Shown one piece after another: positions 13,305 through 64,000 of a stretch of 64,000 nucleotides of DNA. Where the stretch lies: positions 62,001 to 126,000 of the forward strand of contig JAPETS010000044.1 of NCBI GenBank assembly GCA_026023565.1. Reading direction: 5' to 3'. The position numbers were made by a program, and so were the translations under genes. The notes beneath the pieces were generated by a model. It had not been told where the DNA came from and did no database searches. It saw only the letters and a program-made list of their open reading frames with translations. The stretch comes from Cirrosporium novae-zelandiae (Eukaryota). The first letter of the stretch is position 1; every line of letters starts with the position of its first letter.

Positions 13305-14325
13305 ATGGCCACTTTCATCAACACCATGTTCGTTACCTCGTTCTTTTCCCTGGCCCAAAAGTCCAAACCCCCACCAGCGCCCCTAGCGCCCATAACTACC
13401 CTTAGAAAATCCAGCTCTTGCGTGACAATCCATATCAATCATGACTCCCCATCCGCACCCATTCTCGCATCCACGTCGCCTATTCTTGATGTTCTAAAGG
13501 AGAATGTAAGCTCACATGAAGATGGAAATAGCAATGCGCGCGGACGAGGGCACTTTAAGCCACGAACAGCAGCCAAAGGAACAAGCAGTTATCAGCTCCG
13601 TCAGTTCGCCGAAGCAACACTTGGAAGTGGAAGTCTCAGGAAAGCTGTAAAGTTGCCTGAAGGAGAGGATTTGAACGAATGGCTGGCTGTAAATGGTATG
13701 CGATACTTTTAATGAGGGGATTACTATGCAGGCGCTAACGGACGGATGTAATGGTAGTCGTCGATTTCTACAACCAGATCAATCTCCTCTACGGAGCTAT
13801 TACCGAATTCTGCTCCCCACAAACATGCCCCGAAATGAAAGCAACGGACGAGTAGGATCATCAGCACCACCATTGAATCTCTGTTAACAGCGTCAGGTTC
13901 GAATATCTGTGGCAAGACTCGGAAAACTTTAAGCGCCCGACGAAGATGTCGGCCCCAGACTACATTGAGCATCTAATGTCCTGGGTTCAGGGCAGCATTG
14001 ATAATGAACAAGTCTTCCCGAGTAGAATTGGTAAACCCCAGTAGACCCTGTTATGTGGAACAATTGCTGATGTTTTCTGATAGGTGTTCCTTTTCCCAAA
14101 GGCTTTCAAAGCACTGTCCGTCAGATGTTAAAACGGATGTACCGCGTTTATGCCCATGTTTATTGCCATCATTACCCTGTTATCATTCACTTGGGTCTCG
14201 AGCCCCATCTCAACACGAGTTTCAAACATTATGTCCTCTTCATTGATGAACATAATTTGGCGGGCGGAAAGGATTACTGGGGACCTCTTGGAGAATTGGT
14301 GGATAATATGCTGCGGAATGACTAG
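13305..14325 (+). CDS. MOB1: MOB kinase activator Mob1 (SIN/MEN component), multi-exon
   Basis: Spliced exons give [18 protein letters not shown]...[48 protein letters not shown]...[20 protein letters not shown]...[14 protein letters not shown]...HLNTSFKH. Introns have canonical GT..AG ends. Confidence 0.95.
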
Positions 14326-14854
14326 TGTTCAGGGATTGGTAAAAATTTGCATGAGAAGCAAAGGCGCTAGGTATGACAAGGGCGAAACCAATGGTAAAAT
14401 GGGAGGTAACTAGGGCAGACAAAGGGTAGAAGGACGATAATGCTGCTGAGGCGTTGGAGCAACTTATGGTTGGTTGACTTTTCTTGATGGTATATTTCAA
14501 ATAGATTGAAGAATACTTTCTACTGTAGTATTCAGGAACTCTGATGGTTATGAGTAATCGGATAATAGCGGCAGTTAGTCTAGTGGAATCTTCACAGTAC
14601 GTACAGTACTGCAACGGCGCCATGATTAAGCTATTGAGTCCCATTTACGGATATCAAGCCCTAGAGAATCGCCGGAAAGGGTTCCGTTCTTCGGCTTCAC
14701 GGGCCTTTGTGTGCCGTTGTTGGTCTGTGCTCAAAAAATATCTGAGTCATGGCAAAAGATATCTACAAGGACAAACGAGAAGTAGAGTCACGGCACCTCG
14801 TCTTCAAAGAATTTATATCGGGAGAAGATTTCAATTTCTGAGTCAAGCTCGATC

Positions 14855-46515: not shown

Positions 46516-49500
46516 ATGTCCGTAAGGACTATCGACATTATTCAAGACGATGGCGTCTTGCCTTCGCCAGCAAAAAAACAGAAACTGCTTGCTTGCCGAC
46601 GCTGTCGGCATCGGAAACAAAAGGTATCGTCAAATATCGAATATCGAATATCGAATATCAGGCTCAAAGCTAATTCATCCCAGTGTGATGAAGTTCGACC
46701 ATGTGAGAATTGTACAAGGTCTGAAGAAGGTATGTATCTTGAAAGCAAGCCCTTACAACACACAATTAAGCTGAAACCTATTAGAATGCGTGCCGACTGA
46801 GCCTGCTTCGGCCAAATCACAATATGAGACTGGGTAGGTGAAGCAATCACTACTTAATGCCAATTCAAAATACATGTTGCATGGCTAACTACCACTCTCA
46901 AATAGATTTATCCAAGTATTAGAGCAAAGGATCGCTGAGCTTGAATCACTGAACCCGCGCGAATCTCTCGATCATCTACCTCAACCATTTCCTACCGAAC
47001 ATGCCTCTGCAAGAGAGTCTCAGGGGGAGTTGCATAGGTTAAACAACACAAGGAAAAGGAAACGGGCGTATTCCAAGTCTATCAACCTTAATTTACATCT
47101 ACCCGAAATATCAATCGACAGCAGTCAAACTACATTTGCAACACACTCCACGGCTCAGCAGGCCCCTTCTGTCTCACCCAATCATGAAAATAGCTCCAAC
47201 TCTCCTCGAAACTTCTTAGGGAATCACTCTGCATCAGTGGTTGACTCTGCCGCGGAACTTGCGTCGATGAATAGACGACACTGGCGTAATGCCACAATCC
47301 AAACGGGATTTGAAACCTCCACAGTTGAAGGCATCACAGTCTTAGCAAGTATGGACCACGGAAGGAATGGAGAGATTGGATCTTCCCATTCAAATTCTAC
47401 GAGTGTAAACAACATCCCCCAAGCGATTGCAAGCGCCGATAACTCCGCCCCCCCTATTAATATTTCTCCCCAAATGGAAGATTTATTTGTGAAAGCATAT
47501 TTTGAGAGAGCGTATTGTCGATATCCTTTTCTTGGTCCTAGAACATTTTATACTTGGCTTAATTCTTGGAAATCACACTCTTCTCAGTTGAACCCCAGTG
47601 ATGAAAACGACCTTTGGAAAGGTTTCTTTGTTAACATGGTAAAACGCATTTATAAAACCTCAGGGTTCATCTTCAAAACAATTAGCTGACTAGTTTGTAG
47701 GTCTATGCTGTTGGTCTATTGTTGGCAACTCAGGATGCGACGGAGAGAAAACACAGCTCACAGGTAAGTCCAATTGTTATTCTAGATGTTAATCCAACGA
47801 TTGAGAAGAATCAGCTGCTCAGATTGGAATTTAGACAATTTACAACTATGCTGTTAGCGTCTACTTCCCGGCTGTACTAGCACATCACAATCGAGTTCTT
47901 CATGCACAAGCGTACTTATTAATGGCAATGCACGCTCTTCACTCACCTTCCAGTGAAAAGATCATTACACTGGCCTCCTGTGCAATGCGCTCTTGTACCA
48001 TGGGCCAACTTCACATCTCGGAGTCCGTACTTGGGTTAAGTAATAAAGCAACTTTTCAGGAATTACAAACCCGTCGACGAGTGTTCTGGTCTGCCTATGC
48101 ATTGGACAGGGCAGTGGGTACTGCTTTTGACCTTCCATTTACAATTTCTGATGACAATATTTCCGTCGAAGTCCGTACCACCACCCTGACCACTTAAGAC
48201 ACTAGACTAAGAATAGTAGATGTTTGCGAACGTCGATGATGATGAACGACTTCTCCAAGCCACCGATTCGCCTCGGACGAGAGAACTCCAGAATAGTGTT
48301 AGCCGCACAAGCATCTCATCAGCCTTACACATTGTTCATTGTAGACGAATACAATCCGAGATCCTTAGCACTACCCTCCACCATAGCTTTCTCAAACATC
48401 CAAATTCTATATCTGACTGGAGATCTCGCATTTTAGCTAAATTAGATCACTGGAAATCACAGTGCAAGCAGTTTTCCGACCCTGACTCGAAAGGATACAC
48501 AAGTGATGGGTGGCTAGGTATGATATATCATTATAGCCTGGTTATGCTCTATAGACCCACAAAAGCAAGTGTGAGTGGGCCAGCTGGTGATTGGTCTGTT
48601 CAAGCAAGCAGTAAGGCTTGTTTAATTTTTCGGGGATTTCAAAAGGAGCGAACAATCGCACAGCATTGGCTTGGAGTAGGTTTAATTCCTTTCTATTCAT
48701 TGCTTCATATATTTGCGAGCCCTAGGTGTACTCAGGCCAAGATGCTGGATTTGAAAGATGTAGCGAGAAGAAATTTGTGTCATTTAACCTGTGATTTAAA
48801 TGTTGATTCCGGAGAGGCCTTAATTTCTCTATGGATGCCATGTTAAGGAGGTCATTATGCGCTGCAGACTCGATAGTCCTTCTCTTATTCTAGCACTCGC
48901 GAAGCGCTAATATTTTGACCCTTTGAGATCACACTGCGAACATTGATTTTTCGGAGGCCTTGAAGACTTTCTATAATCCTTCAACTTTGAATTGCATTCA
49001 GTCAGACAAGAATATCACTGGGACTAATAGTTCTGTAGTTGCTTACTCAATTTCAAATTGGTGTTACACTACTATATTGCTTTTGGGCTACGCCGCCACG
49101 TTTTCGAACCGATTCATACTACTCTCCTGATGTTCCCGATGCTCTTCGGGCCTGTTCTAATGTCCTTGCTATTCTTGCCGAGCGCTGGAAGGAAGCAGAC
49201 TGCTTACGCGACGTCTTTGAACTGTTGGCTCGAAATATACCGCTCGTTGACCGACCCCTACACCCGAGACGTGGTCACCCCGACTATGAAAAAGGTACTT
49301 ACTCAAGTCCCCAGCGAGTGAGCAGTGAGGTAGAAAATAAAATTCGGTCGAGGTGGGCAATGCTTGAAAGTCTCGTCGTTCACCGTGCAATTCTAAGAAT
49401 GATTGACGAAATGATAAGTGAGGATTTTCCTCGCCCGGAGGATGATGCGGCTGAAGAAGTAATCGAACAAGGGAGCCGACTTCAATTAATACGGCCGAGA

Positions 49501-49665
49501 TGGTCTTATATCGATCAGCAACAATTTACCGGAGATAATGATAATGGGCTAGCTCTGCAGTCATCATTCTTGGACAATAGTTTTAGCTTTCTAACCACCA
49601 ATTCATGGCCATTGGGAGAAATGGGGCAGAACTTTGATCAAATATCTAGTATTCAAATTACATAA
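46516..49665 (+). CDS. Zn(II)2Cys6 transcription factor with fungal-specific TF domain, multi-exon
   Basis: ACRRCRHRKQK|CDEVRPCENCTRSEE|ECVP, coiled coil IQVLEQRIAELE, RRRVFWSAYALDR, C-terminal ACSNVLAILAERW. Confidence 0.9.
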
Positions 49666-49787: not shown

Positions 49788-51271
49788 TTAACCAAACTCC
49801 TTCAGAACCTCAGCTAGTCTTCTCACACCTTCAGCTATTTCATTCTCTTCATGCCAAGCCCAGGTAAGCCGCGAACTTCTCTCTATAAGATTTCGATTTT
49901 CAATTTTCGTCTTATCACCCCAGGCTAAGAACATAGTCCCATATGGAATTTTCAATGCATAATTATCAAGAGCGCGGGCGGCAATTACATTTGCGGGAGG
50001 CAGTTCCGCCGGGAAAGTGATATAAATAAAGAACCCTCCTGAAAAACACTGGTACTCTTGTCCCTCGCTTTCTGTCCCTAGTGTAGGGAGACTCGATTCA
50101 TACGGTTTACCAGTATCAATCTTCACCCCTAGCGGAATGAGGTGCTTAGAAATGGCTGCCATTAAAACGTGATAACGTTTCTCATAAGTAGGTATCAGGA
50201 CTGAAGCGATGTGAGATTGCAGATCTCCAGTCGAAAGAAGGTCGTCAATGAAGACGGATGTAAATTGGCTAGGTGCCCCTCCTGATCGCGTACTTCCTCT
50301 AAGAATAATGTCAGTTTTGCAAATATTTCTGATTCAATTAGGTATTAAGGGACATACACAATGCTCAACCGTGAAGAAAATGCTTCAGTTCCTTCAGCCC
50401 AACCGACCCTAACTCCTGGGCCTACAAGTTTTGAAAATGATCCGTTACTCACACTATTACCCCAATCCCCCGAGCCCTCTAACTTTCTATCTAGATCCAC
50501 AATCCTGGGAGGAACAGGACCTGGCAATGCATAGCCATTTGTGATCTTCGAATCAGTGGGCCATCTAAGGAAATCGTATACATCATCTGTGATGATCAGC
50601 GCATCAAACTTCCGCGCTAGTTGCAGCAATTGAATCCGTCGTGCCAGAGACATTGTCTTCGCACTGGGATTAGAAAATGTAGGGACCGCATAGATGATAT
50701 GCTTATAAAGCTTGGGATATCTGGGTCCTGCTTTATATGACTGTTCTTCGGGTCTCGTTTGGTGGTCAACAGCTTCGATGGCTTTTTCTAAGAAGCTCAC
50801 GTCTAGGCCTTCATTATCCTCTGGAACGCCGGTTAATCGGCCTTGGAAACCGGAATCTTCAAAAATGCGGCACGCCAAAAAATATGTAGGCTCGATCATC
50901 CAGATTCTCCGGGTGTAGATTGGGTCCGTGAACACCTGCAAAATGCTGGCGAGGTTTTGCGAGGCACCTCCAGTTATACAAATTCGTCCTTCGCTGATCC
51001 GACCAGCTTCTGGCATATAGAAGTCAGAGAGCCAGGCGGCAATACTTTTGCGCAGTGGACCATGCCCAATGTCTGGCCCATAGAGAAGAGCCGCTGTGGC
51101 AAGATCTGGGTTTGACAGAGCTGTGATTGATGCTTGCTGCAACTTAACTGTGGGAAGAAGCCGAGGTGATGGCCTATAATATTTAATTCCTCGTTCATGT
51201 CATTTGGCAAATGCTGTGAATGATTATACTAACCAGCCTAGTTGAAGATTGATTGGAGCTAACTCGTCCAT
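49788..51271 (-). CDS. Class I/II PLP-dependent aminotransferase (YER152C/2-aminoadipate transaminase-like), two introns
   Basis: INLQLGW|PSPRLLP, LLYGPDIG, ITGGASQNL, EPTYFLA, YAVPTFSNPS, ITDDVYD, SNGSFSKLVGPGVRVGW (PLP lysine), GGFFIY. Confidence 0.92.
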
Positions 51272-51499: not shown

Positions 51500-51690
51500 C
51501 GTCATCAAAGATAACGATAACGCTCCCCTGCAACCTTCAACTGGGACGCTGAGACTAGGTTAGAGCCGGCTTTTGGGATTAAAGCCTTAGGACTGAGGCT
51601 AGGTTTCCTCCTCACTTCGGGCACTTCGGGCCTCGGCATGTAAAGAAATCTGGCCGAAGGTTTCGGACTGTCAGTCCGATGAACTACTGC
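51500..51690. promoter_or_regulatory. Divergent-promoter elements: GATAA pair (51510, 51516), CACTTCGGG direct repeat, and the 17-bp palindrome TCGGACTG-T-CAGTCCGA (51663-51679)
   Basis: Seen directly between the divergent ATGs at 51271 and 51966. CGG triplets are the typical Zn2Cys6 half-sites. Confidence 0.55.
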
Positions 51691-51965: not shown

Positions 51966-53987
51966 ATGCCACAACGCACTCAGAGTCTCGATGCCGAGCA
52001 GGCGCAATTTGATCAGGATGTAGCAGACATCAAAGCGTGGTGGAAGACTCCTAGACAAGCTCATCTCAAGCGGTACGCCTCACCTGATATTTTAATCAGT
52101 ATTACATGTCTAACAAATAGCACAGGCCATACGCAGCTGAAAGAATTGCTGCTATGAGAAACACTGTCAAACAGCACTATGCTTCCAGCGACCAAGCTCT
52201 CAAATTATGGGGACAATTGAATGAGCACTTGAAGAATGGGACGTACGAAATGACATTTGGAGCTACAGGTGAGAATGTCATATGAATTCAAATGTTTACA
52301 GTTGCTAATTCTCATTAAGATCCCATAATGGTCTCTCAAATGGTGAAGCATCAGCAGGTCAGTCACTGGGAAAATAATAAATAGTCAAAAACTACAAGTG
52401 ATTAATCACATGGCTTCTACAGACTGTCTATGTATCAGGCGCTATATGCGGTCTTTCTGAAGTTTCACACTTAGGGATGGACCACGCCGATTATCCCTGG
52501 GACACTGTCCCTAAAACCGTTGACAGAATATTCCGTTCACAGATGTGGCATGACCAACGCCAACATCATTTCAGGATGCTTCACAAGAAGGAACATCGAG
52601 ACAAACTTGAGAATTGGGATTACTTGGCTCCCATTGTCGCTGATGGGGATATGGTGAGTTGATTTGCATTTCTATATTTCCATAGACACTCCTAACCCTT
52701 GTTGTATAAAGGGCTTCGGCGGTTTGACTTCGACAATGAAGTTGGCCAAGGCGTTTGTTGAAGCCGGTGTAGCCATGTTCCATATTGATGATCTCGCGAT
52801 CGGTAAGATTTACAAGTTTTATTTCTATGTGCTCCAGAAGCTGATCCAAGGTGGTAGGCCTAAAGAAGTTCACTGCCGGTCAGGGGAGAACAATAGTTCC
52901 AACAAGCGAATACCTCTCACGTCTTACTGCAGCACGCATGCAATTTGATATCATGGGGGCTGAGACCGTAAGCTCTGCAAACTTCTGAATTTCATCCAAG
53001 AAACCGATTCTCTAACGACTGGTTAAGATGTTACTTTGCCGCTGTGACACGGACCATTCTGAGTTTATTACATCAGTAATAGACCCCCGTGATCACAAAT
53101 ATGTCATTGGAGCTACTGTAGACATCAAACCCCTGGCTCAAGTCCTTGAAAAAGCGGCTGAATCTGGAAAAGCCAACCTCAATACGGTGAGGTCTGACTG
53201 GATGAAATCCGCTGGTCTCGCAACCTTTGACGAAGCGGTGAAAATTGAAGCTACTGAAGATCAATACCAAAGCTACATGACCGAGATCTCAGACCGCACT
53301 GTATCCCTAGCAGAAAGGCGAGCCATTGCAAAGAAAGCGCTCAGCAAGGACGTCAAATTCGACTGGGAGCTCCCGCGGTCGAAAGAGGGCCAATACCTAT
53401 TCAAATCCTGCGTCACAGCAGTCATTGAGCGAGCACTTCTTGCTGCCCCTTTAGGAGACGTAACGTGGGCTCGAATGGACGCACCCGGTAAGCCATACCC
53501 CTATCTACTCTAACCCCAGCCATCTAACCAAAGAACCTCCAAAGTCTGGACCGACATCCTCGAATTCCACACCGAAGTACGAAAAGTCTACCCGAACCGC
53601 CTCTTCGCCTTTGGCTACACGGGAAACTACCCCTTTGCTTCCAAGGGCTTCTCCCCAGCCGAAATCTCCTCCTTCCCTTCCGACCTTGCCAAGCTCGGCA
53701 TCGTCTGGCAAACACAACCGATCTGGGCCGCTCAGGGGGTCAACCTCCTAACAAACGGGTTTGCAAAGATGTGGAGGGAGGAAGGGATTGAGGGGTATAT
53801 TAGGGAGGTCCAGGAGCCGGCGATGGCGACGGAGCCAATGACGGATGGGTTTGAGAAGTTGAGCTGGTGTGGGGCGTATCTTGCGGATGCGTTTTTGGAA
53901 ACGGTGGCGGCGAGGGATGGGGAGGAGGGGGGGGTGGATGTGAGGATTGCGGGGGATGGGGTGTTGGGGGTTAATAGGAAGCGTTGA
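51966..53987 (+). CDS. Isocitrate lyase-superfamily protein with a non-canonical active site, multi-exon
   Basis: Collinear with fungal ICL: IKAWWKTPRQAHLKRPY, TVYVSG, DHADYPWDTVPKTVDRIFRSQMWHD, YLAPIVADGDMGFGG, IDPRDH, LAKLGIVWQ, YIREVQEP. The catalytic KKCGH is replaced by KKFTA. Confidence 0.9.
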
Positions 53988-55054: not shown

Positions 55055-56866
55055 TCAATATGACATATCTGCCGTTACATCGTCATAATTACTAGGGTAT
55101 GTGACGCCGTTTGTTGCTTCGCTACCCCAACTGGAATCATTTTCGATTGATGAGACGGTTTGCTGAGGAACGCTCAAGGCCTCATTAGTGATCGCACCTT
55201 CATTAAGTGCGGTGGTTGGCATTGAGAATTGATCAGGGGCCTCGATGGGCTTTTGCTGGTGATTCATTTTTCGAAAAGGCTGTCTGGCGCTTGAAGTGGA
55301 CGACGTAGACGACCTGTCGCGTTTTTGAGCTGGGAGACTGTCAGAACTGATATTGGAGGCCATCCATGGATCCTTCAAACACTCAGCTGCCGTTGGTCGC
55401 CTCTCAGGTTTGTCTTGCATCATTCGATCAATAAGGCTGAGCGCTGGTTCTTTGGTGCCTAGAACCATCCTTCCACGAAGCGATGAGGGAATATCTAGAA
55501 TTAGCTCCTGAAAAACTTTACCCAATGCCCAAATATCAATAGCATTGGTGTACACGAGCCGCTGGTCTTGCGCGACTGTCTCTATTCCCTTGCGCTTTTG
55601 CTTCTGAAGCTCTTCCGTCCTCTTGTTGACCTCTATAACCTCAGGAGCGATGTAGCCGTCGGTTCCACAGAAGGTCTTATGCTCGGAATTTATGCCTGCA
55701 AGGCCAAAGTCTGCGAGCTTGATGGCGGGAATATCCGTTTCAGGATCCCATTTTGTCACTAATATGTTCTGAGGTTTCAAGTCCCGATGCATAAATCCCT
55801 CGCCGTGAAGGTATTTGAGGCCTGATAAGGCTTGCCGGCCGATAGATCGGACACATGGAAGAGACAAATATGAATTGCGTTTGCTGTTTTGCCTAGCTTT
55901 CCGTTGTGTATCAAGGTCACTGACGGCAAGCTCCATTACGATACATATCTGGCCGGTAGGGATTTTGAAGGCACGCTCGTATTTTATGATATTCTCCTTT
56001 TTGAATATTAGTATACAGCACAGGAGAAGCACGAATTAACTCACATGACAAAGGCTGCTCATTATATTGATCTCTTTCATTCCCATATTTCCATCCCCAC
56101 TAAGGATCTTGATGGCGAAAACTTTCCCGTCTTTGATATTCACGGCTTTGTGAACCTCCCCGAAAGCGCCCTTGCCAAGGATGGCCGAGCTTTTATGCTC
56201 AGCGCCAATCTGTGGATCGTCTTCTCGAGTAGTTGCCATGTATTGGGCATCAGGGAAGCCAAGCCTTTTAGCATACTGTTCATAGTTGAACTGATGCTCT
56301 TTGGCGCAGGTGCTGATATTTGGAAACTCGACTATGAATTGAAACTTCTCTCCACAATGAATGCTTGTGCCAGCCATGAGAAGTAAGGACTTCTGCGCTC
56401 TTAAAACGGCAGATCCAACTCTTATTCTGTCCAAGGCCGTGATCAAAAGCGCGCCACTATTGAAGTTGTAATGGATTCGAAAGTAGGCTTTTATCGTTTG
56501 TGTGCCATAGTAGGGTACTTTGACGTCGGAGCTAGGCGCAGATCCGAATTCGAATCCTCGAGCAGGTAGTTTTGCGGTAGATTCGAATCCAAGTCGAATA
56601 ACTCTTAGAGTACTGGGATACATGCCTGGCGTGCTTTCGCGAGATACTCTTCCGTGATTGTGTGAAGAATTGTCATAAGGAGAGAGGTGTGTCGTAGGGA
56701 GAAGTTCGGGGATTCCATCTAGGGGGGTATCAACAGGTTCGGGGGGTGGGGTGACTTTGAAATTATAAAGCTCGTTATTGGGGATATCTAATACCTCGAT
56801 ATCTTCTGGTGTCCCTGGTCTGAGATATAGAATAGTTTGGGATACAGAACTGCCTGAGTTTGCCAT
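55055..56866 (-). CDS. Ser/Thr protein kinase with degenerate N-terminal FHA-like region; one intron (~55998-56044)
   Basis: GKGAFGEV, FAIK, KEINIMSSLCH|ENIIKY, HRDLKPQNILV, LADFGLA, TFCGTDGYIAPE, DIWALG are all intact. N-terminal GFEFGS..SDV...FRIHYNFNSGAL is FHA-like. Confidence 0.88.
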
Positions 56867-57710
56867 TTTTAGGAAATGCAAAAAGAATCGCGAGAAGGGC
56901 AGGCAGGGTGTGGAGAAAGGAAAAGGCTGAGCAACTGGTTGTACAGAGTAGAGAGAGTACCATCGAGAGCTGGGGGATTCTGTCCATTTTATCATCCCTC
57001 CTACCATTCCTGGACGTGAGACGTGAGGCTTAGCAGGCCAATGGATGACCTTAACTAACCGCGAGGCTATCTATCCAACTACAGACTTGCTCAGCTTTCA
57101 ATAGCCCTAAAGAGATTATTGGCTAAAGACCCTAGTATATATATTTCGATTTAATTGGTACTGATGTTATATTGTGTAACGATTTAAAATTATGCTATGA
57201 AAAATATGCTAGCTATGATAGTGTATTCCACCACAATAGCCTTTGAGATGATTCCACGTGGACCACGCTAAGAAAAACTAAACTTATTCAGATAATTATG
57301 CAGTTTATGTTGATGAAATTACATCTTTCACAGCTAATCAATCCATCTAATCTAATCTTGAAGAGATCTCTGGTCATGTGATTCCTTCAATTATTTTTGA
57401 CCCGATCGCTTAGTTAATAATTAGTCTAAATCGTAGCCTAAGGCAAAACGGCGTTTCTGTTTCCCGCCTCCAACTCTAATGTCATCCTCATTTCGTCATG
57501 AATATATCCTTCGACTAGCCTTGGTTCACTACAAGTACAAGTACCCATGTCGCTTTACAGCAACTATCAACCAACCCTCCAAGTGTTATAAACAGTGGGA
57601 TTTTGCTCCTCTCTCTTCCTGTGACCAGCAACAGATGGCCATGTTTCCCAACCTTGAATAATACGATACACGAATCAATACTCTGGTCACGGCGGCTACA
57701 AGCAGAAGCC

Positions 57711-59777
57711 ATGGAGCTTGACTATGAACGAGATGATTCACCAAGTATTCCATCCTTTAAAATCTGTGAGAAGGCAAAGAAGTTTGGTGAAGAGATGACA
57801 ATGGAACAGGAAGAGGAAGATGCGTTGGCCATTGAATTCGACTACGATGGTTCACAGTTAACACCGGAGCAAAGACGGGCCATTTTCATGAAGTGGTTCG
57901 CCTATCATTTGAAAGATAATGGTCTTCGATCACCACAATACTTTGAAGACAAATCGCAATGTCTCTCTATTATGGAAACCGTCTGGCCAGGTGCAGTAGG
58001 CTATTTCAAAGCTAATAGGTTGAAGCGCGGCTATATAGACCCAGAGAAGCTGACGGCACGACTACGTGAGTTGAAGCCGTCCGACAATTTCGAACTCCGC
58101 AAGTTTCGCCATCCTCCTATGTCATGGAAAAGTCTTACACCACTGAGAGAAAAAGGCTTTGAGAGATTTCCACCTGACCCAGACTGGCTAATCATGCAAT
58201 TGACCGACGTGAACTGTATGCGAAGACGATTAGGGAATCGGTTGACTGATAAGTATCAGCGGGAAATAAGGGATCGGTGGAACGCAGTCGAATCCGGCGC
58301 GGAACTGGAACCTTCTCCTGATTTGCATTTATTGAGAGATATGGGGCATAGTCCGGGCGGAACACTCTTCCCTTGGTACCTGGTCAAGGGACTTATGGCA
58401 TTGCATGATCATGCCTACGACGAGGGGTGCGAACTATACGATGAAGAGTATGACAGTGCAACGGTCAAAAGAGAAGAGGCGATTATTCGCTGGAGGAAGA
58501 GAAACCCCGATTCGATACTGGCAGATGATCCGGTTTCTATTTATGGGACTTGGCCCGCGGATTTGATGGATGAGCTGGATGAGATAGACCGGGAGGCCAT
58601 CCGATGCGGAAGGAGAAAGTACGTAGCCCTCCTCAGAGAGACGGGAGAGAAGATGCAGGCACTGGTTGCCTTCTGGAGAGACTGTGGGCTTGTTACCGGA
58701 CACAGGACCCCACCCTCACCTTGGTGGCAAGATCCCAAGGCCAAAGCGGAGCGGCTCCCCAAGCCACAATATTTGAAGGAACGATTGGATGCCATCAATA
58801 CAGAGTTTGTTCATTGGACTGACAAGGCTGAAAAGCTAAGAATGATCGAAACATCACACTGGATAGAGACAGTTATCAACACTCATTCCGAGCCTGCTGC
58901 ATCTGATACTCCCTTCCCACAACCACTGCTTGATGAACTGGATATTGTGTGGCGGGACCGTGATTGGCTAGATCATGACGACACCGAAGATGAAATGATC
59001 GCCCGAATACGTGAATGGAGGAATTCGAAACACCGGCAACGTCTTAAAGAGGAACTTCGTACGTCACCGCAGCTTGGTTCAGATGCTGGCCCAGAAGAAC
59101 CGGTTCAAAAAGCAACAAATCGAGGATATTCCGGGCAAAGGAATCTGTTACGGGACAACGTATCAGGTCCAGCCATGGCGCCAGAAGAAACACGGCAGCT
59201 CCAGGAAAAATTATCCAAAGGAACACGCCGTCGGCTCCAGACGAAGATTACGATGGTAGAGGACCAGACGATCTGGCAGGGGAGGCTTCGATCTAGGACA
59301 AATCCTACGATGGAAGAAGGCCAGACGATCTGGCAAGATAGACTTCGGCTCAGGCGTAGCGGAGTCAGCGCTTCACGCGAGAGCCTCAACCCGGCACATA
59401 AACCGACAGGAAAGCCTAAGGGCATCGTAAAACAATATCGCAGGAATGCATCGAAGAAGCAGCAAGTAGTCACGAAAGGTCAAGCCGCCACCGCCAATAT
59501 ACAGAAGGCAGGCCCGCCTCACCTAACTAGTACTCAGCCGCAATCTCATTTCAACGAACGCTCTACCCAAGCAATACCTCATAGTGCCACAAAGTCTAGA
59601 AGAACGAAGGACTTGAGACGTCAGTCCCTTCGCCAAGCCAATGCGGTGCAAGCACAAGGTGCACAAAAGGCCTGTAGCACCAAAGAAAGGCAGTCTTGCA
59701 GGCTCACGAGCGCTGCGCTAACGACAAAGCGTAACCAAGAGCTTTCCCGCCTCCTTACGCCACCCCGATCAGAGTGA
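57711..59777 (+). CDS. Hypothetical intronless protein (~688 aa) with internal repeats and a basic disordered C-terminus
   Basis: Uninterrupted ORF (57603-59777, first good ATG 57711) with coding-like composition. No family was recognised. Confidence 0.7.
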   Translation: MELDYERDDSPSIPSFKICEKAKKFGEEMTMEQEEEDALAIEFDYDGSQLTPEQRRAIFMKWFAYHLKDNGLRSPQYFEDKSQCLSIMETVWPGAVGYFKANRLKRGYIDPEKLTARLRELKPSDNFELRKFRHPPMSWKSLTPLREKGFERFPPDPDWLIMQLTDVNCMRRRLGNRLTDKYQREIRDRWNAVESGAELEPSPDLHLLRDMGHSPGGTLFPWYLVKGLMALHDHAYDEGCELYDEEYDSATVKREEAIIRWRKRNPDSILADDPVSIYGTWPADLMDELDEIDREAIRCGRRKYVALLRETGEKMQALVAFWRDCGLVTGHRTPPSPWWQDPKAKAERLPKPQYLKERLDAINTEFVHWTDKAEKLRMIETSHWIETVINTHSEPAASDTPFPQPLLDELDIVWRDRDWLDHDDTEDEMIARIREWRNSKHRQRLKEELRTSPQLGSDAGPEEPVQKATNRGYSGQRNLLRDNVSGPAMAPEETRQLQEKLSKGTRRRLQTKITMVEDQTIWQGRLRSRTNPTMEEGQTIWQDRLRLRRSGVSASRESLNPAHKPTGKPKGIVKQYRRNASKKQQVVTKGQAATANIQKAGPPHLTSTQPQSHFNERSTQAIPHSATKSRRTKDLRRQSLRQANAVQAQGAQKACSTKERQSCRLTSAALTTKRNQELSRLLTPPRSE

Positions 59778-62290
59778 GATCCAAGTAGTCAATTGAGCCT
59801 CGCGACTGCCAAATTCCGACGCAAAACACGAATTAATCGACACCTCGTAAATAGCCCACAAGGTCAGCTAAGAAATCTACGCTGCGATCGAAGCTCTGGC
59901 AGGTTTTCCCCGGTAGATACAACGCCAGGACCTCACTGACACGAGCAAACACCAAGAGTGTGCCGCCAGACGATATCACCTTTGATCGATGATATGAGAG
60001 GGATATAGCTAACACCTTTTAAGTGCGGACTACTACCTTAACACCTTTACTGCTTAACAGGGCTGCCACTACTCTAGCGCTTCTCTAGCAGTTCGTTGAG
60101 AACTACCTCCCTCCCAGCCCAAGATATCAAGGAAGAGACATCATGGTGACACGGTGGCAGACAAGCATAGATTTCTAGAACGAGGCCCGAATTCATCAAA
60201 ACGTCTCATCAAAACCACGAGTAAATTTAGATGCAGATTATTACTTGACGGCTTTCCTTCGGAGATCCATGGATAGGTATCGGACTCTGGAGATGTCATG
60301 CACGACTTCGAACTCTATGATCCTAGAAGTGCTGATATGATAACCTCGCAATTCAGCACACTTAAATCTCGCGCACACCTCACATCTAAAATTATTAGGA
60401 GTTATTCGATAGCCTTCCGTGGTACATGGTACCTATCAATTAGACATAACCTGAAGATTAAAAAATCGCCGGAACGGGTCCTCATAACAAGACTCAACAT
60501 AGCCACCCTCTACCAGGTGCCGTTTTCAATCCCCATAACGACCCAGCCTGTTAACTGGACGGCTGATAACCACATGCATTCTATTTTACGAGGACTATTT
60601 TGGGCCCTATGATTCTTTTTCATATCGAGTCAAATACGCAGCATTCGAACTGGACAACACGTAGCACCTACTACAGAAGCTTTCGGCAACCACGGCAGAT
60701 AACAGTAAACCACGATGCCATAGTGGAAGTCAGGCACTCTATAACCATCGACCTGGAATCAAGCGACGACGATACCCAGGAACCGAGCGTGAAGGAACAA
60801 AGTCTCATGGCGAAAATATTTATGCGCTGGACTATTTCAGTATTAATTATCCATTGCTCCCTCTATATGTGCTAAGTCCGCCTACGGCGTGAAGACAATT
60901 AGGAGCCGCGCTAGCTCTAGTGGGATGTCTTTTTAGCTATACAGGATCATATTTACCAAGACAGGGACCCAAATACTTGCCAGGGCCTTCGGTCTGAATT
61001 GATGAAAGTGCGACGAGATAACAAGCGACTACAACGAGAGATTAGCAGACTACGAAAACAGCGTATCCGGGATAAGGCAATTATCACCCATCTAGCAGCA
61101 TCCTACCGTTAAGGGGCCTAATGAGAGGTCCTAGTGACCACAAACATGATGGTATGAAGGAAAATGACATAAAAATCCTTTCGCAAAGGAAGAGAAGAAG
61201 AATTATAAATGAGAGTGGCAACGGCAACCAAAGCGACAATCGCGAAACGGATACAAGTCCGGACAAGGAGATAGAACTAGATCGAAGCAGAAATAAAGGA
61301 TAGAACCTGTGTTTTAAGAACACTGCTGAGATGCTTCAAACCGAAATTCCTCTAGCTACTGTTTGTGTTTCTATAGACTTTCATTTTACCATTCCTCTTC
61401 AATATAGATTTAATTGGCGTTGCAATATGGACAGATTTCTTTTTCTGGTTTCAAAAGGGCCTTTAGACCTTCATTATATATTCTTCAGATTTAATAATAG
61501 GCTAGGCAGAGGACAGACCAACCTATTGAGATATATTCTTGAAAACAAAATTTCAATCTATAAAACTATTCAGTTCTGGTAAAAGTAGCTGCAGCAGTAG
61601 TCGTCTATATACGTATAAGATGCATGATTTTTTAATAACCCACACGTAAAGCAAACTAAAGAAAAATCATCATATCACATACTCAATCCATCCATCCATT
61701 CCATCCTAATACCCCACCTCATCATAAAAATCACAAAAAAATCATACTTTAAGTGGGATTATGCAACGATAGGAACCAGTTCTGGATAGGACAGGTTAGG
61801 CATCGGACTCCATGTCCGACGACGAACGACCTCGGTCCCGGCCCCGGATCCCGATTCCGATCCCTATCCCTATCCCCGATTGCCGAGTTCACACCCTTGG
61901 CCCTAGTCCCCTCCCAGGCCCCCTCCACTATCTACCGTACCTACCTAGGTATCTATCTCCAGCTATCTATAGTGAGGGTACTAGAGTAAGTGCAAGGTTA
62001 TGTATGTGGTGTTGCCCACATCCCACATGCCAATCTAATCCAATCCAATCCAATCCACCGTGCTGGACGATAGCTATTAATATTAAAATCAATGCTAATA
62101 TCAGTATCAATATCTTTAATCCAGGCAACCTCTCGTGATCGATCTGTCGATTCAATTGATGCATGGGATGTAGAGATAGCTAGGTACGTAGGTAAGTAAA
62201 GGGAGATAGATAGATAGGTAGATAATGATATACACGCACATACATACTTAGTACACGCATGCATGTGGATTAGCTCAAAGATACATTCAT

Positions 62291-62350: not shown

Positions 62351-62523
62351 TATACTCTATCCTATAGAATTAGTTTTTCGATATTTTATCTCTCCTTCTC
62401 TCTCCTCGTTCTTTCTTTCTTTCTCTTTGTTTTGTTTATTTATTATATTATAGGATATAAATTTCCTACCTGTACCACACTATATACACATCCTACACAT
62501 ACCGACCCCCAAACCAACAAACC

Positions 62524-64000
62524 ATGTCCCCCACCACCACCACCATCACCACATCCGACAAAAAACCCCCTACCTCCCCCAAATTCAAATCTCCCTCTTC
62601 AATCTCTGCCACTTCCCTCCCCACCGACATCGACATCGATGTCGATATCGCCGCCGCCTACGCTTCCGATATCACAACCTACATACCGCAAGAAGCGAAA
62701 CGGTTACGATGGAAGCTGGATTTGAGATTGGTGCCGTTGTTGTGGTTTAATGTTACGTTGGGGGCTATGGATAAGGTCACGACTGCTACGGCGGCTTTGT
62801 GAGTTTTTTTTTTGGTTTTGGTTTTTTGGGGGGGAGGGGAGTAAAGGGGAGAATGTGTGGCTGATGGTGGTGGTGAATAATAGATATGGTATGAGAGCCG
62901 ATACGGGATTAGTGGGGGAGCAATATTCTTGGGTTGCGAGTGTTTTTTACGTATGTATGACCGACCCTAGGACCGTTATACCCCAATTTCGTTTTTGTAA
63001 ATTTTCGTTGAGATCCAAAATGAACACATGCACGTTTTTGGAATAACTTTGCTGACCCACTGTGCCCTTGCACTATCCATCCATACAGTTTGGCTATCTC
63101 ATCTGGTGTTTTCCCTCGGCAATGATTCTGCAGCGCCTTCCAATCGCCAAAACGATGGCAATAGCACAAGTAATCTGGGGTATTATCCTAATAGGGACGG
63201 GATTCGCGCAGAACTTTCCAACTATGATTGCGCTGAGGTTGTTGCTGGGAATTTTGGAGGCGCCGATTATTCCTGGGAATTTGTTGGTGCTTTCAATGTG
63301 GTATACTAGAAGGTGAGTTGGTTGTTCTGTTGTTGGCTTTCGATGGCTCTGTGCATGTGTGGTGGTGGTGGTGGAGATGTTAGTGCGGAGAATAAGAGGG
63401 TTGATGGTTTTTGGGTAGTGAACAATCGCTTCGTTATGGATTGATGTATACCGGGCTTTCGGTTTGTTTTACGGGCCCTATTGGTTATGCGTATGTGCTC
63501 CCTTATGTTGCATTCGCACTCCTTGCTTGTGTTAACATAATCAGTATTGGATTCATCCACGGCGATTCACCCGAGATATGGCGTATATTCTTCTGGATCA
63601 CCGGCGGTATGACGGTAGTGTGGTCTCTCGTTCTTGGCCTTTTCCTCCCCGATAACCCAGTCAAGGCGAAATTCCTCAGCGAGCGTGAAAAGGTTATTGC
63701 CATAGATCGAGTTCGAGTTAACCAGACAGGAATCGAGAATAAGAAATTTAAGAAGGCGCAATTTATCGAGGCTATGCTAGATCCAAAAACGTGGCTGATG
63801 TTTTTCTTTAATGTTTGGGTCAATGTTCCGAATGGAGGTCTTACGAATGTGAGAAGCCTGATAGTATACCTCTTTTCTTTTATCGAGAAGCTGATTGAAT
63901 CTGGATAGTTTTCTCCCTTGATCATTAAGGGGCTGGGCTATACTTCGCAGCGCTCTACTCTCCTGACAATGCCGTGCGGAATCATGCAGACAGTTTCCAG
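62524..64000 (+). CDS. MFS transporter, allantoate permease (Dal5/ACS) family; 3' end outside the window
   Basis: EAKRLRWKLDLRLVP..MDK..AALYGMRADTGLVGEQYSWVASVFY|FGYL..LQRLP..RLLLGILEA..MWYTR|SEQ..LPDNPVKAKFLSERE..NQTGIENKKFK..PNGGLTN|FSPLIIKGLGYT. Confidence 0.9.

Follow-up and report, generated by a model that had tools for sequence, protein, structure and literature searches.

What becomes of an isocitrate lyase (ICL) that lacks its catalytic cysteine? The question is raised by a gene in a stretch of the Cirrosporium novae-zelandiae genome (contig JAPETS010000044.1, positions 62,001 to 126,000), a window of 64,000 nucleotides whose own numbering is used for all coordinates below. The gene encodes a protein of the eukaryote-type ICL family in which the loop motif KKCGH has given way to KKFT. 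It is intact, and it is a member of an uncharacterised, strongly conserved clade of cysteine-less proteins within that family, called here the KKFT clade. The protein itself is in all likelihood not an isocitrate lyase, and not a methylisocitrate lyase (MCL) either. We lean, with modest confidence, towards a cysteine-independent, Mg2+-dependent enzyme that would cleave a 2-oxo acid made by a neighbouring aminotransferase, as part of a catabolic gene cluster.

The gene lies on the plus strand at 51966-53987 and consists of eight exons (51966-52072, 52126-52268, 52320-52357, 52423-52653, 52712-52802, 52858-52967, 53028-53487, and 53545-53987) encoding 540 amino acids and ending with a TGA stop at 53985-53987. 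Its seven introns, each 51 to 65 nt long, are all bounded by GT..AG and carry a CTAAC/CTGAT-like branch site. The coding sequence of 1623 nt is open through all eight exons, in keeping with a sequence-only reading of this DNA that preceded our analysis and described a frame intact across about seven introns. Its translation is identical, letter for letter, to a deposited protein of this fungus of the class Xylobotryomycetes (P0001, 'MAG: hypothetical protein M1834_006901 [Cirrosporium novae-zelandiae]'), and the Pfam model PF00463 (ICL) is matched by every large exon. The span first proposed, 52425-53730, does fall within the gene but starts in exon 4 and stops midway through exon 8. The 52802/52858 junction lies where it had been placed, with GT..AG intron borders; the splice junctions rest on these signals, on the deposited protein, and on an ungapped alignment of orthologs.

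The gene model bears directly on one explanation of the missing motif, that of a pseudogene in decay or of a canonical ICL whose exons were joined wrongly, for which the absence of KKCGH, and nothing further, speaks. The sequence-only reading had itself named an alternative splice restoring KKCGH as grounds for its rejection. No exon encoding KKCGH was found, and with CGH missing from every reading frame of the window around the gene, the motif is beyond the reach of any alternative splice. With eight exons in an open frame, canonical splice signals, and the same substitutions recurring in the homologs described below, this explanation is refuted, and we give it virtually no credence.

The best match among solved structures is Aspergillus nidulans ICL (1dqu; phmmer E 3.7e-104, residues 10-515, 36% identity), and alignment to it bears out every substitution that had been listed earlier. 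The canonical stretch from HIEDQ to KKCGHM is represented in P0001 by FHIDDLAIGLKKFTAGQGRT. At the end of exon 5 (52790-52802, ...DDLAI(G)), HIEDQ has become HIDDL, with Glu changed to Asp and Gln to Leu, and the KKFTA codons that stand in place of KKCGH occupy exactly the reported positions, 52863-52877, exchanging Cys for Phe, Gly for Thr, and His for Ala. YVSGAI replaces YVSGWQ at residues 99-104 (52429-52446), keeping the Ser-Gly pair and changing Trp to Ala, and CRCD replaces ARTD at residues 244-247 (53037-53048), keeping Arg245 and introducing Cys246. At residues 386-391 (53463-53480), TWARMD stands for IWME, so that the Glu of the W-x-E motif is now an invariant Arg389 and Asp391 is new. 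The distal-site motif LAYNLSPSFNW is replaced by FAFGYTGNYPF (residues 414-424; 53604-53636), and WQFITLA by WQTQPIW (residues 448-454; 53706-53726), the longer form being WQFITLAG to WQTQPIWA. All of these features are on the plus strand. Unchanged relative to 1dqu are DHADYP, ADGD, His197, and Arg245, as had been stated of the metal-binding acidic motifs, the His, and the Arg.

According to PMC11982470, the Mg2+ pocket of PrpB comprises D60, D87, D89, and E117, its pyruvate contacts are Y45, S47, the amides of G48/G49, and R160, and the K[KR]CGH motif sits on a flexible loop. By motif correspondence, the equivalents of these residues in P0001 are Y99, S101, G102, D119, D170, D172, D199 (from Glu), and R245. 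All of them are kept, so the half of the site that handles the metal and the 2-oxy acid is intact while the other half has been rebuilt: Cys and His have gone from the loop, the Glu behind them is now Arg, and the distal (succinate) pocket has been replaced throughout. NLSPSFNW, FITLAG, and the W-x-E Glu serve the succinate-side pocket of canonical ICLs. P0001 has the ICL-type Mg2+ ligands and the Ser-Gly/Arg residues for glyoxylate (2-oxy acid), and lacks both the ICL-type KKCGH loop and this succinate-side pocket. The two positions that are F and T in ICLs and L and S in MCLs, as set out in PMC11982470, correspond to T450 and P452 of P0001, with Val at the first of them in 29 of 31 relatives.

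Retained and new residues alike are conserved across the clade. S101, G102, D170, D172, D199, D200, and R245 recur in every aligned row, whether of 31 or of 40. Within YVSGAI, S101 and G102 are present in all 31 rows of the clade alignment and the Ala in 30, and D199, D200, and L201 are found in all 31. R245, C246, and D247 show no variation in 40 rows, and the invariant positions of this 40-sequence alignment further include D199, D200, L201, A202, G204, K206, F208, T209, G211, G213, R214, T215, W387, R389, D391, F414, F416, and G420.

Two rival explanations take hold here. The first is that the protein has remained a lyase, whether of isocitrate, of methylisocitrate, or of a closely analogous compound (homoisocitrate or an alkylmalate, for instance), with its general acid relocated, for example to Cys246, a residue invariant in all 40 rows and adjoining the active-site Arg245, within a site whose Mg2+ and oxo-acid residues are intact. 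Against this, the entire distal pocket has been replaced, and both ICL/MCL selectivity positions, as PMC11982470 defines them, have changed; moreover, PMC12088919 calls KKCGH essential for ICL function. The second is that a dead pseudoenzyme has been retained as a metabolite-binding regulator or scaffold. Both the catalytic Cys and the loop His are gone, and the same source (PMC12088919) offers a precedent in the Mycobacterium tuberculosis ICL2 fragment Rv1916, which is without KKCGH and binds acetyl-CoA. A pure scaffold would have no need of the metal ligands and oxo-acid contacts that are invariant clade-wide, and the remodelled pocket residues are invariant too, as would be expected of a new substrate site.

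How widely is the altered loop shared? A word-indexed search with exon 7 returned 194 proteins, and among the best 120 of these, which were examined, 97 span the loop, the remaining 23 being fragments without that region. None of the 97 has a Cys in the loop: 94 carry K[KR]FT, two KKLT (P0036 and P0079), and one KKFN (P0085). Named sources belong to three classes of Pezizomycotina (Leotiomycetes, Sordariomycetes, and Dothideomycetes) and to Schizosaccharomyces pombe, whose KRFT-loop protein P0105 bears the deposited name 'Mitochondrial 2-methylisocitrate lyase'. Identity to P0001 runs from 51 to 66% inside the clade; in a HMMER scan of 1.84 billion representatives, the full-length relative that follows has 37% identity and carries KKCGH. 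The ratio of nonsynonymous to synonymous substitution rates (dN/dS; Nei-Gojobori, metagenome open frames) was 0.038-0.064 in the six of 21 ortholog pairs that were unsaturated, the other 15 being saturated at synonymous sites. Substitutions private to this genome, or relaxed selection, would have pointed to decay, and neither these nor an alternative splice came to light when looked for; the earlier contention that the loop does not reflect decay is therefore strongly supported. Strong purifying selection is equally expected of a binding protein, and in this respect it suits a pseudoenzyme as well as an enzyme.

At the level of the fold, P0001 is plainly a member of the ICL family, on the evidence of PF00463, 1dqu, the NCBIfam equivalog TIGR01346 (isocit_lyase), and Foldseek. 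The AlphaFold2 model, built on 40 relatives, has a mean predicted local distance difference test score of 81.4 and a predicted template-modelling (TM) score of 0.82, with low confidence only at residues 107-122, at the loop (204-212), and in the C-terminal tail. Its top Foldseek matches are fungal ICLs and the M. oryzae MCL MoMcl1, at TM scores of 0.74-0.80, and the ESM Atlas returned ICL clusters only. TIGR01346 is matched by P0001 at 369 bits and by S. pombe P0105 at 365, against a cut-off of 275.9, which counts in favour of a lyase with a relocated general acid. Membership among the phosphoenolpyruvate (PEP) mutases or phosphonopyruvate hydrolases was also considered and rejected; the equivalog models are unmatched by either protein at E values up to 10, the sole related signal being to CPEP mutase, at 13.3 and 17.6 bits against a cut-off of 420.

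Two trees were built, one of 82 rows (LG+G4) and a quick tree of 46 rows (LG+C20 with posterior mean site frequencies); support is given as the Shimodaira-Hasegawa-like approximate likelihood-ratio test (SH-aLRT), without bootstrap values, and the root was not inferred. The KKFT clade forms one side of a branch with an SH-aLRT of 100 in both trees, S. pombe branching first, and this separate clade with its low dN/dS is what the sequence-only reading had proposed looking for. At the two selectivity positions, the rows that carry F,T (ICL signature) and those that carry L,S (MCL signature) form separate groups, the latter (SH-aLRT 99) excluding P0001, and the position of the KKFT clade outside both speaks against a lyase of either kind. 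In both trees the clade joins a second cysteine-less group at SH-aLRT 99-100. This group B has 10 representatives (P0133, P0138, P0142, P0145, P0177, P0196, P0198, P0200, P0216, and P0269), among them the 'isocitrate lyase' P0133 of the basidiomycete Mycena vulgaris, with loop KKTGA. It shares with the KKFT clade the HxDD change and the loss of the Cys, whereas its loops are variable (KKTGA, KKFKA, KRFDH, KRHS, and others) and its pocket motifs differ. The cysteine-less lineage as a whole is sister to MCL in the 82-row tree (SH-aLRT 88) or to ICL plus MCL in the 46-row tree, a placement that depends on the model and the root.

The strongest functional clue is a conserved gene cluster, which has no counterpart in the sequence-only reading. 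Divergent from the ICL-like gene, across a promoter region of 694 bp, is a class I/II aminotransferase of the LysN/KAT/MppQ type (M1834_006900, P0380, 454 aa) at 49791-51271 on the minus strand. Beyond it, at approximate limits of 46567-49662 on the plus strand, lies a gene for a Zn2Cys6/fungal-specific transcription factor (PF04082), identified by tblastn with a factor from the metagenome locus L003 that carries Zn_clus and Fungal_trans. On the other side, a major facilitator superfamily (MFS) transporter gene, matching the Dal5-like anion:cation symporter model TIGR00893, occupies 62461-64000 on the plus strand, its start being approximate and its end running off the window.

A metagenome scan with the clade alignment yielded 80 loci, 23 of the KKFT type and 57 with KKCGH. 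Of the former, 22 show the loop and one (L019) is a C-terminal fragment, and many are short contigs or near-duplicates. By tblastn and Pfam, the gene is accompanied by an MFS transporter at 19 of these 23 loci, by a class-I glutamine-amidotransferase-like (amidase-like) protein at 16, by an aminotransferase at 15, by a fused hydantoinase/5-oxoprolinase at 11, and by a Zn2Cys6 regulator at eight, while the 57 canonical KKCGH loci, of which 13 are longer than 9 kb, have none of these five families. Taking 11 non-redundant loci together with the window, we counted the transporter in 12 of 12, the aminotransferase in 10, the regulator in eight, the amidase-like protein in eight, and the oxoprolinase-like protein in seven; no further family recurred in this set. 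The loop varies at three of the metagenome loci, reading KKFIV at L012 and L027 and KRFSM at L047, and the last retains the adjoining transporter, aminotransferase, and regulator despite its loop. At L021, an Ap4A phosphorylase/ATP adenylyltransferase gene (13584-14369, minus strand) sits between the amidase-like and aminotransferase genes and is not conserved elsewhere.

The nearest solved relatives of the aminotransferase are archaeal multiple-substrate/kynurenine aminotransferases, alanine-glyoxylate transaminase, LysN, and MppQ. The amidase-like protein is closest to plant gamma-glutamyl peptidase 1 (E 3.3e-9), the oxoprolinase-like protein, by type an ATP-dependent lactamase, matches caprolactamase subunits below their cut-offs, and the transporter has its best match in the TIGR00893 anion:cation symporter subfamily. 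These are enzymes of nitrogen compounds and not genes of the glyoxylate or methylcitrate cycle, one more reason why we consider it unlikely that the protein is a lyase with a relocated general acid. Co-inheritance with enzymes and a transporter is also not what one would look for in a dead protein, and we hold the pseudoenzyme explanation to be quite unlikely.

The pairing with the aminotransferase extends to named species, 15 of which have the KKFT protein and the aminotransferase on equal-sized contigs; Cirrosporium, Cosmosporella sp. VM-42, and Fusarium nematophilum have the two under consecutive locus tags, and in Stylonectria norvegica the tags differ by two. Some Sordariomycetes have two or more KKFT genes of different subclades (KKFTV/I, KKFTN), as in Xylariomycetidae sp. 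FL2044 (P0021, P0050) and Clonostachys rosea (P0104, P0110), and Geosmithia morbida has two aminotransferase paralogs (P0349, P0400). These paired duplicates suggest that the KKFT gene and the aminotransferase were duplicated together and then diversified.

The promoters offer a further hint of a functional unit. A CGG-N9-CCG palindrome, CGGACTGTCAGTCCG, lies in the divergent promoter at 51664-51678 and is a candidate Zn2Cys6 site, and a second of the same type, CGGACTCCATGTCCG, lies upstream of the MFS gene at 61804-61818. The pattern CGGAC-N5-GTCCG, chosen post hoc, has two matches in the 64 kb against 0.02 expected. Its exact form is absent from the 80 metagenome loci, which hold looser CGG-N8/9-CCG sites with a shared GAAGTCCG half. 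The paired, putative sites hint at co-regulation by the Zn2Cys6 factor of the cluster. Elsewhere in the window, a frame for an aminoglycoside/choline-kinase-type phosphotransferase (PF01636; 37857-38807, plus strand) shows no apparent relation to the cluster.

How might these parts work together? The pathway would begin with an acidic amino acid, either imported as such or released by the two accessory enzymes from a lactam or an amide, and the aminotransferase would turn it into a 2-oxo acid. The KKFT enzyme would then chelate this acid on Mg2+ and break a bond at C3 by way of a metal-stabilised pyruvate-type enolate, whether by aldol-type C-C cleavage, by decarboxylation, or by C-P or C-S hydrolysis, and with such chemistry the loop cysteine would not be needed. 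The data themselves show the gene model, its conservation under purifying selection, the residues retained and replaced, and the synteny; catalysis, the type of bond, the substrate, and the direction of the pathway are what we infer. The new chemistry of an aldolase or decarboxylase kind that the sequence-only reading had proposed would agree with the aminotransferase neighbour and with the retention of the Mg2+/oxo-acid residues. The oxoprolinase-like and amidase-like partners point to further forms of the nutrient, a lactam and an amide or gamma-glutamyl conjugate of the acidic amino acid. Dal5-family carriers move dipeptides, including gamma-glutamyl dipeptides, and in A. nidulans the oxoprolinase-like LamA takes part in lactam utilisation. 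Among the substrates weighed (4-substituted 2-oxoglutarates, oxaloacetate analogues, phosphono- and sulfopyruvate, 2-oxoadipate from an aminoadipate lactam, and ureidoglycolate-type compounds), none is favoured by the results. The more specific proposal, that cysteine-independent C-C (or C-P/C-S) cleavage closes an unrecognised but widespread fungal pathway for a lactam, amide, or gamma-glutamyl form of an acidic amino compound, served by all six cluster members with the Zn2Cys6 factor as its dedicated regulator, is tentative, and we think it somewhat more apt to be wrong than right.

As an alternative to breakdown, the cluster could be biosynthetic. The KKFT enzyme would then make an unusual 2-oxo acid, by PEP-mutase-like or aldol chemistry, for transamination to a non-proteinogenic amino acid that the MFS transporter exports. 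PEP mutase belongs to the same superfamily and, according to PMC3266647, its product is transaminated to phosphonoalanine; a regulator, an MFS transporter, and tailoring enzymes would fit a fungal biosynthetic cluster as well. The cluster has no core synthase, its transporter is of the Dal5/ACS uptake type, and its oxoprolinase-like and amidase-like members are of degradative types. The NCBIfam models for PEP mutase and phosphonopyruvate hydrolase go unmatched, with CPEP mutase reaching only 13-18 bits, and the clade is very wide and vertically distributed, S. pombe included. We accordingly rate a biosynthetic role as improbable.

Several observations nevertheless weigh against a catabolic, cysteine-independent enzyme. 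The residue roles are assigned by motif correspondence and alignment, without a liganded structure. The invariant Cys246 beside Arg245 could in principle rescue lyase chemistry, and the cluster could run in the biosynthetic direction. Phe and Thr can vary within KKFT, and the KKLT, KKFN, KKFI, and KRFS variants mean that the loop may carry no catalytic residue at all. Within the window, the oxoprolinase-like and amidase-like genes were not found by tblastn or Pfam in the 64 kb, and the MFS gene lies about 8 kb downstream of the ICL-like gene, behind a protein-kinase gene (55058-57070, minus strand) and an open frame of 752 aa that matches no Pfam model (57519-59774, plus strand). Because the transporter directly adjoins the ICL-like gene in other fungi, this arrangement looks like a lineage insertion or rearrangement. 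Contigs of the KKFT protein and the aminotransferase are unequal in five species (Verruconis, Mollisiaceae sp., Thozetella, Dactylonectria, and Glarea), the two Glarea records coming from different strains. Finally, the close correlation between the distance matrices of the 15 KKFT/aminotransferase pairs (Mantel r 0.87, with none of 2000 permutations as high), which we count in favour of co-inheritance, stems in part from a common species phylogeny.

Even with these reservations, a cysteine-less enzyme of 2-oxo-acid cleavage is the reading we prefer, and what we regard as new here is a functional subfamily inside the ICL family, located in a previously undescribed conserved fungal cluster. Full-text literature outside subscription journals yielded no description of a cysteine-less fungal ICL clade, of the S. 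pombe gene by name, or of such a cluster. Hundreds of fungal deposits, among them some from a model yeast and many plant-associated genera, go by the name 'isocitrate lyase' or 'mitochondrial 2-methylisocitrate lyase' and yet lack the catalytic cysteine. The TIGR01346 scores, about 90 bits above the cut-off, lie behind this systematic mislabelling, and automatic pipelines will name KKFT proteins isocitrate lyase. Reconstructions of the glyoxylate or methylcitrate cycle that count these proteins, which have no catalytic cysteine, are probably wrong. The tentative lactam or amide pathway would also account for the KKFT-type 'methylisocitrate lyase' of S. pombe, presumably the only ICL-family gene in a yeast that is not known to have a glyoxylate cycle. 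With an aminotransferase, a transporter, and a regulator conserved alongside it, what was an orphan enzyme can be placed in a pathway open to testing, and the clade may serve as a natural example of a lyase active site rebuilt for new chemistry with its metal site kept.

Among known systems, the closest in form are the fungal ICLs (AcuD, 1DQU; Fusarium graminearum, 5E9H; Saccharomyces cerevisiae Icl1, 7EBC), which share with P0001 the PF00463 domain, the length, and the eukaryote-specific inserted domain, with TM scores of 0.75-0.80 and with the Mg2+ ligands, Ser-Gly, His197, and Arg245 in common. P0001 differs from them in having KKFT for KKCGH, HxDDL for HxEDQ, W-A-R for W-M-E, and other pockets, and the KKFT clade stands apart, in an aminotransferase/MFS cluster absent from all 57 canonical loci. 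The fungal MCLs (the S. cerevisiae Icl2-type P0130 and M. oryzae MoMcl1, 8Z1R) have lent their name to the deposits from S. pombe, Colletotrichum, Tolypocladium, and other orthologs. MCLs, as PMC11982470 describes them, keep K[KR]CGH and have L/S at the selectivity positions, and P0001 has neither; they also have an N-terminal extension (P0125 has 579 aa, and residue 8 of P0001 aligns with its residue 34), whereas P0001 starts at the conserved core.

A parallel in pathway organisation comes from the phosphonopyruvate hydrolase PalA of Variovorax sp. Pal2, whose gene, according to PMC3266647, shares its operon with transaminase, transporter, and regulator genes. On the same account PalA, a PEP mutase/ICL superfamily enzyme that does without the cysteine, splits the 2-oxo acid produced by the adjoining transaminase, and this four-part layout is that of the core cluster in the window (regulator, transporter, transaminase, and cysteine-less enzyme). 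PalA differs in being a short bacterial protein of the PEP-mutase type, and nothing ties the fungal cluster to phosphonates. Since the PEP mutase and hydrolase models are unmatched by P0001, the likeness is one of pathway logic and not of membership. In PEP mutase, the oxaloacetate decarboxylase PA4872, and ketopantoate hydroxymethyltransferase, the Mg2+/oxo-acid site stabilises an enolate without a loop cysteine. These proteins, of about 260-300 aa, are short and come from remote branches, whereas the origin of the KKFT clade lies within the long ICLs of the eukaryote type.

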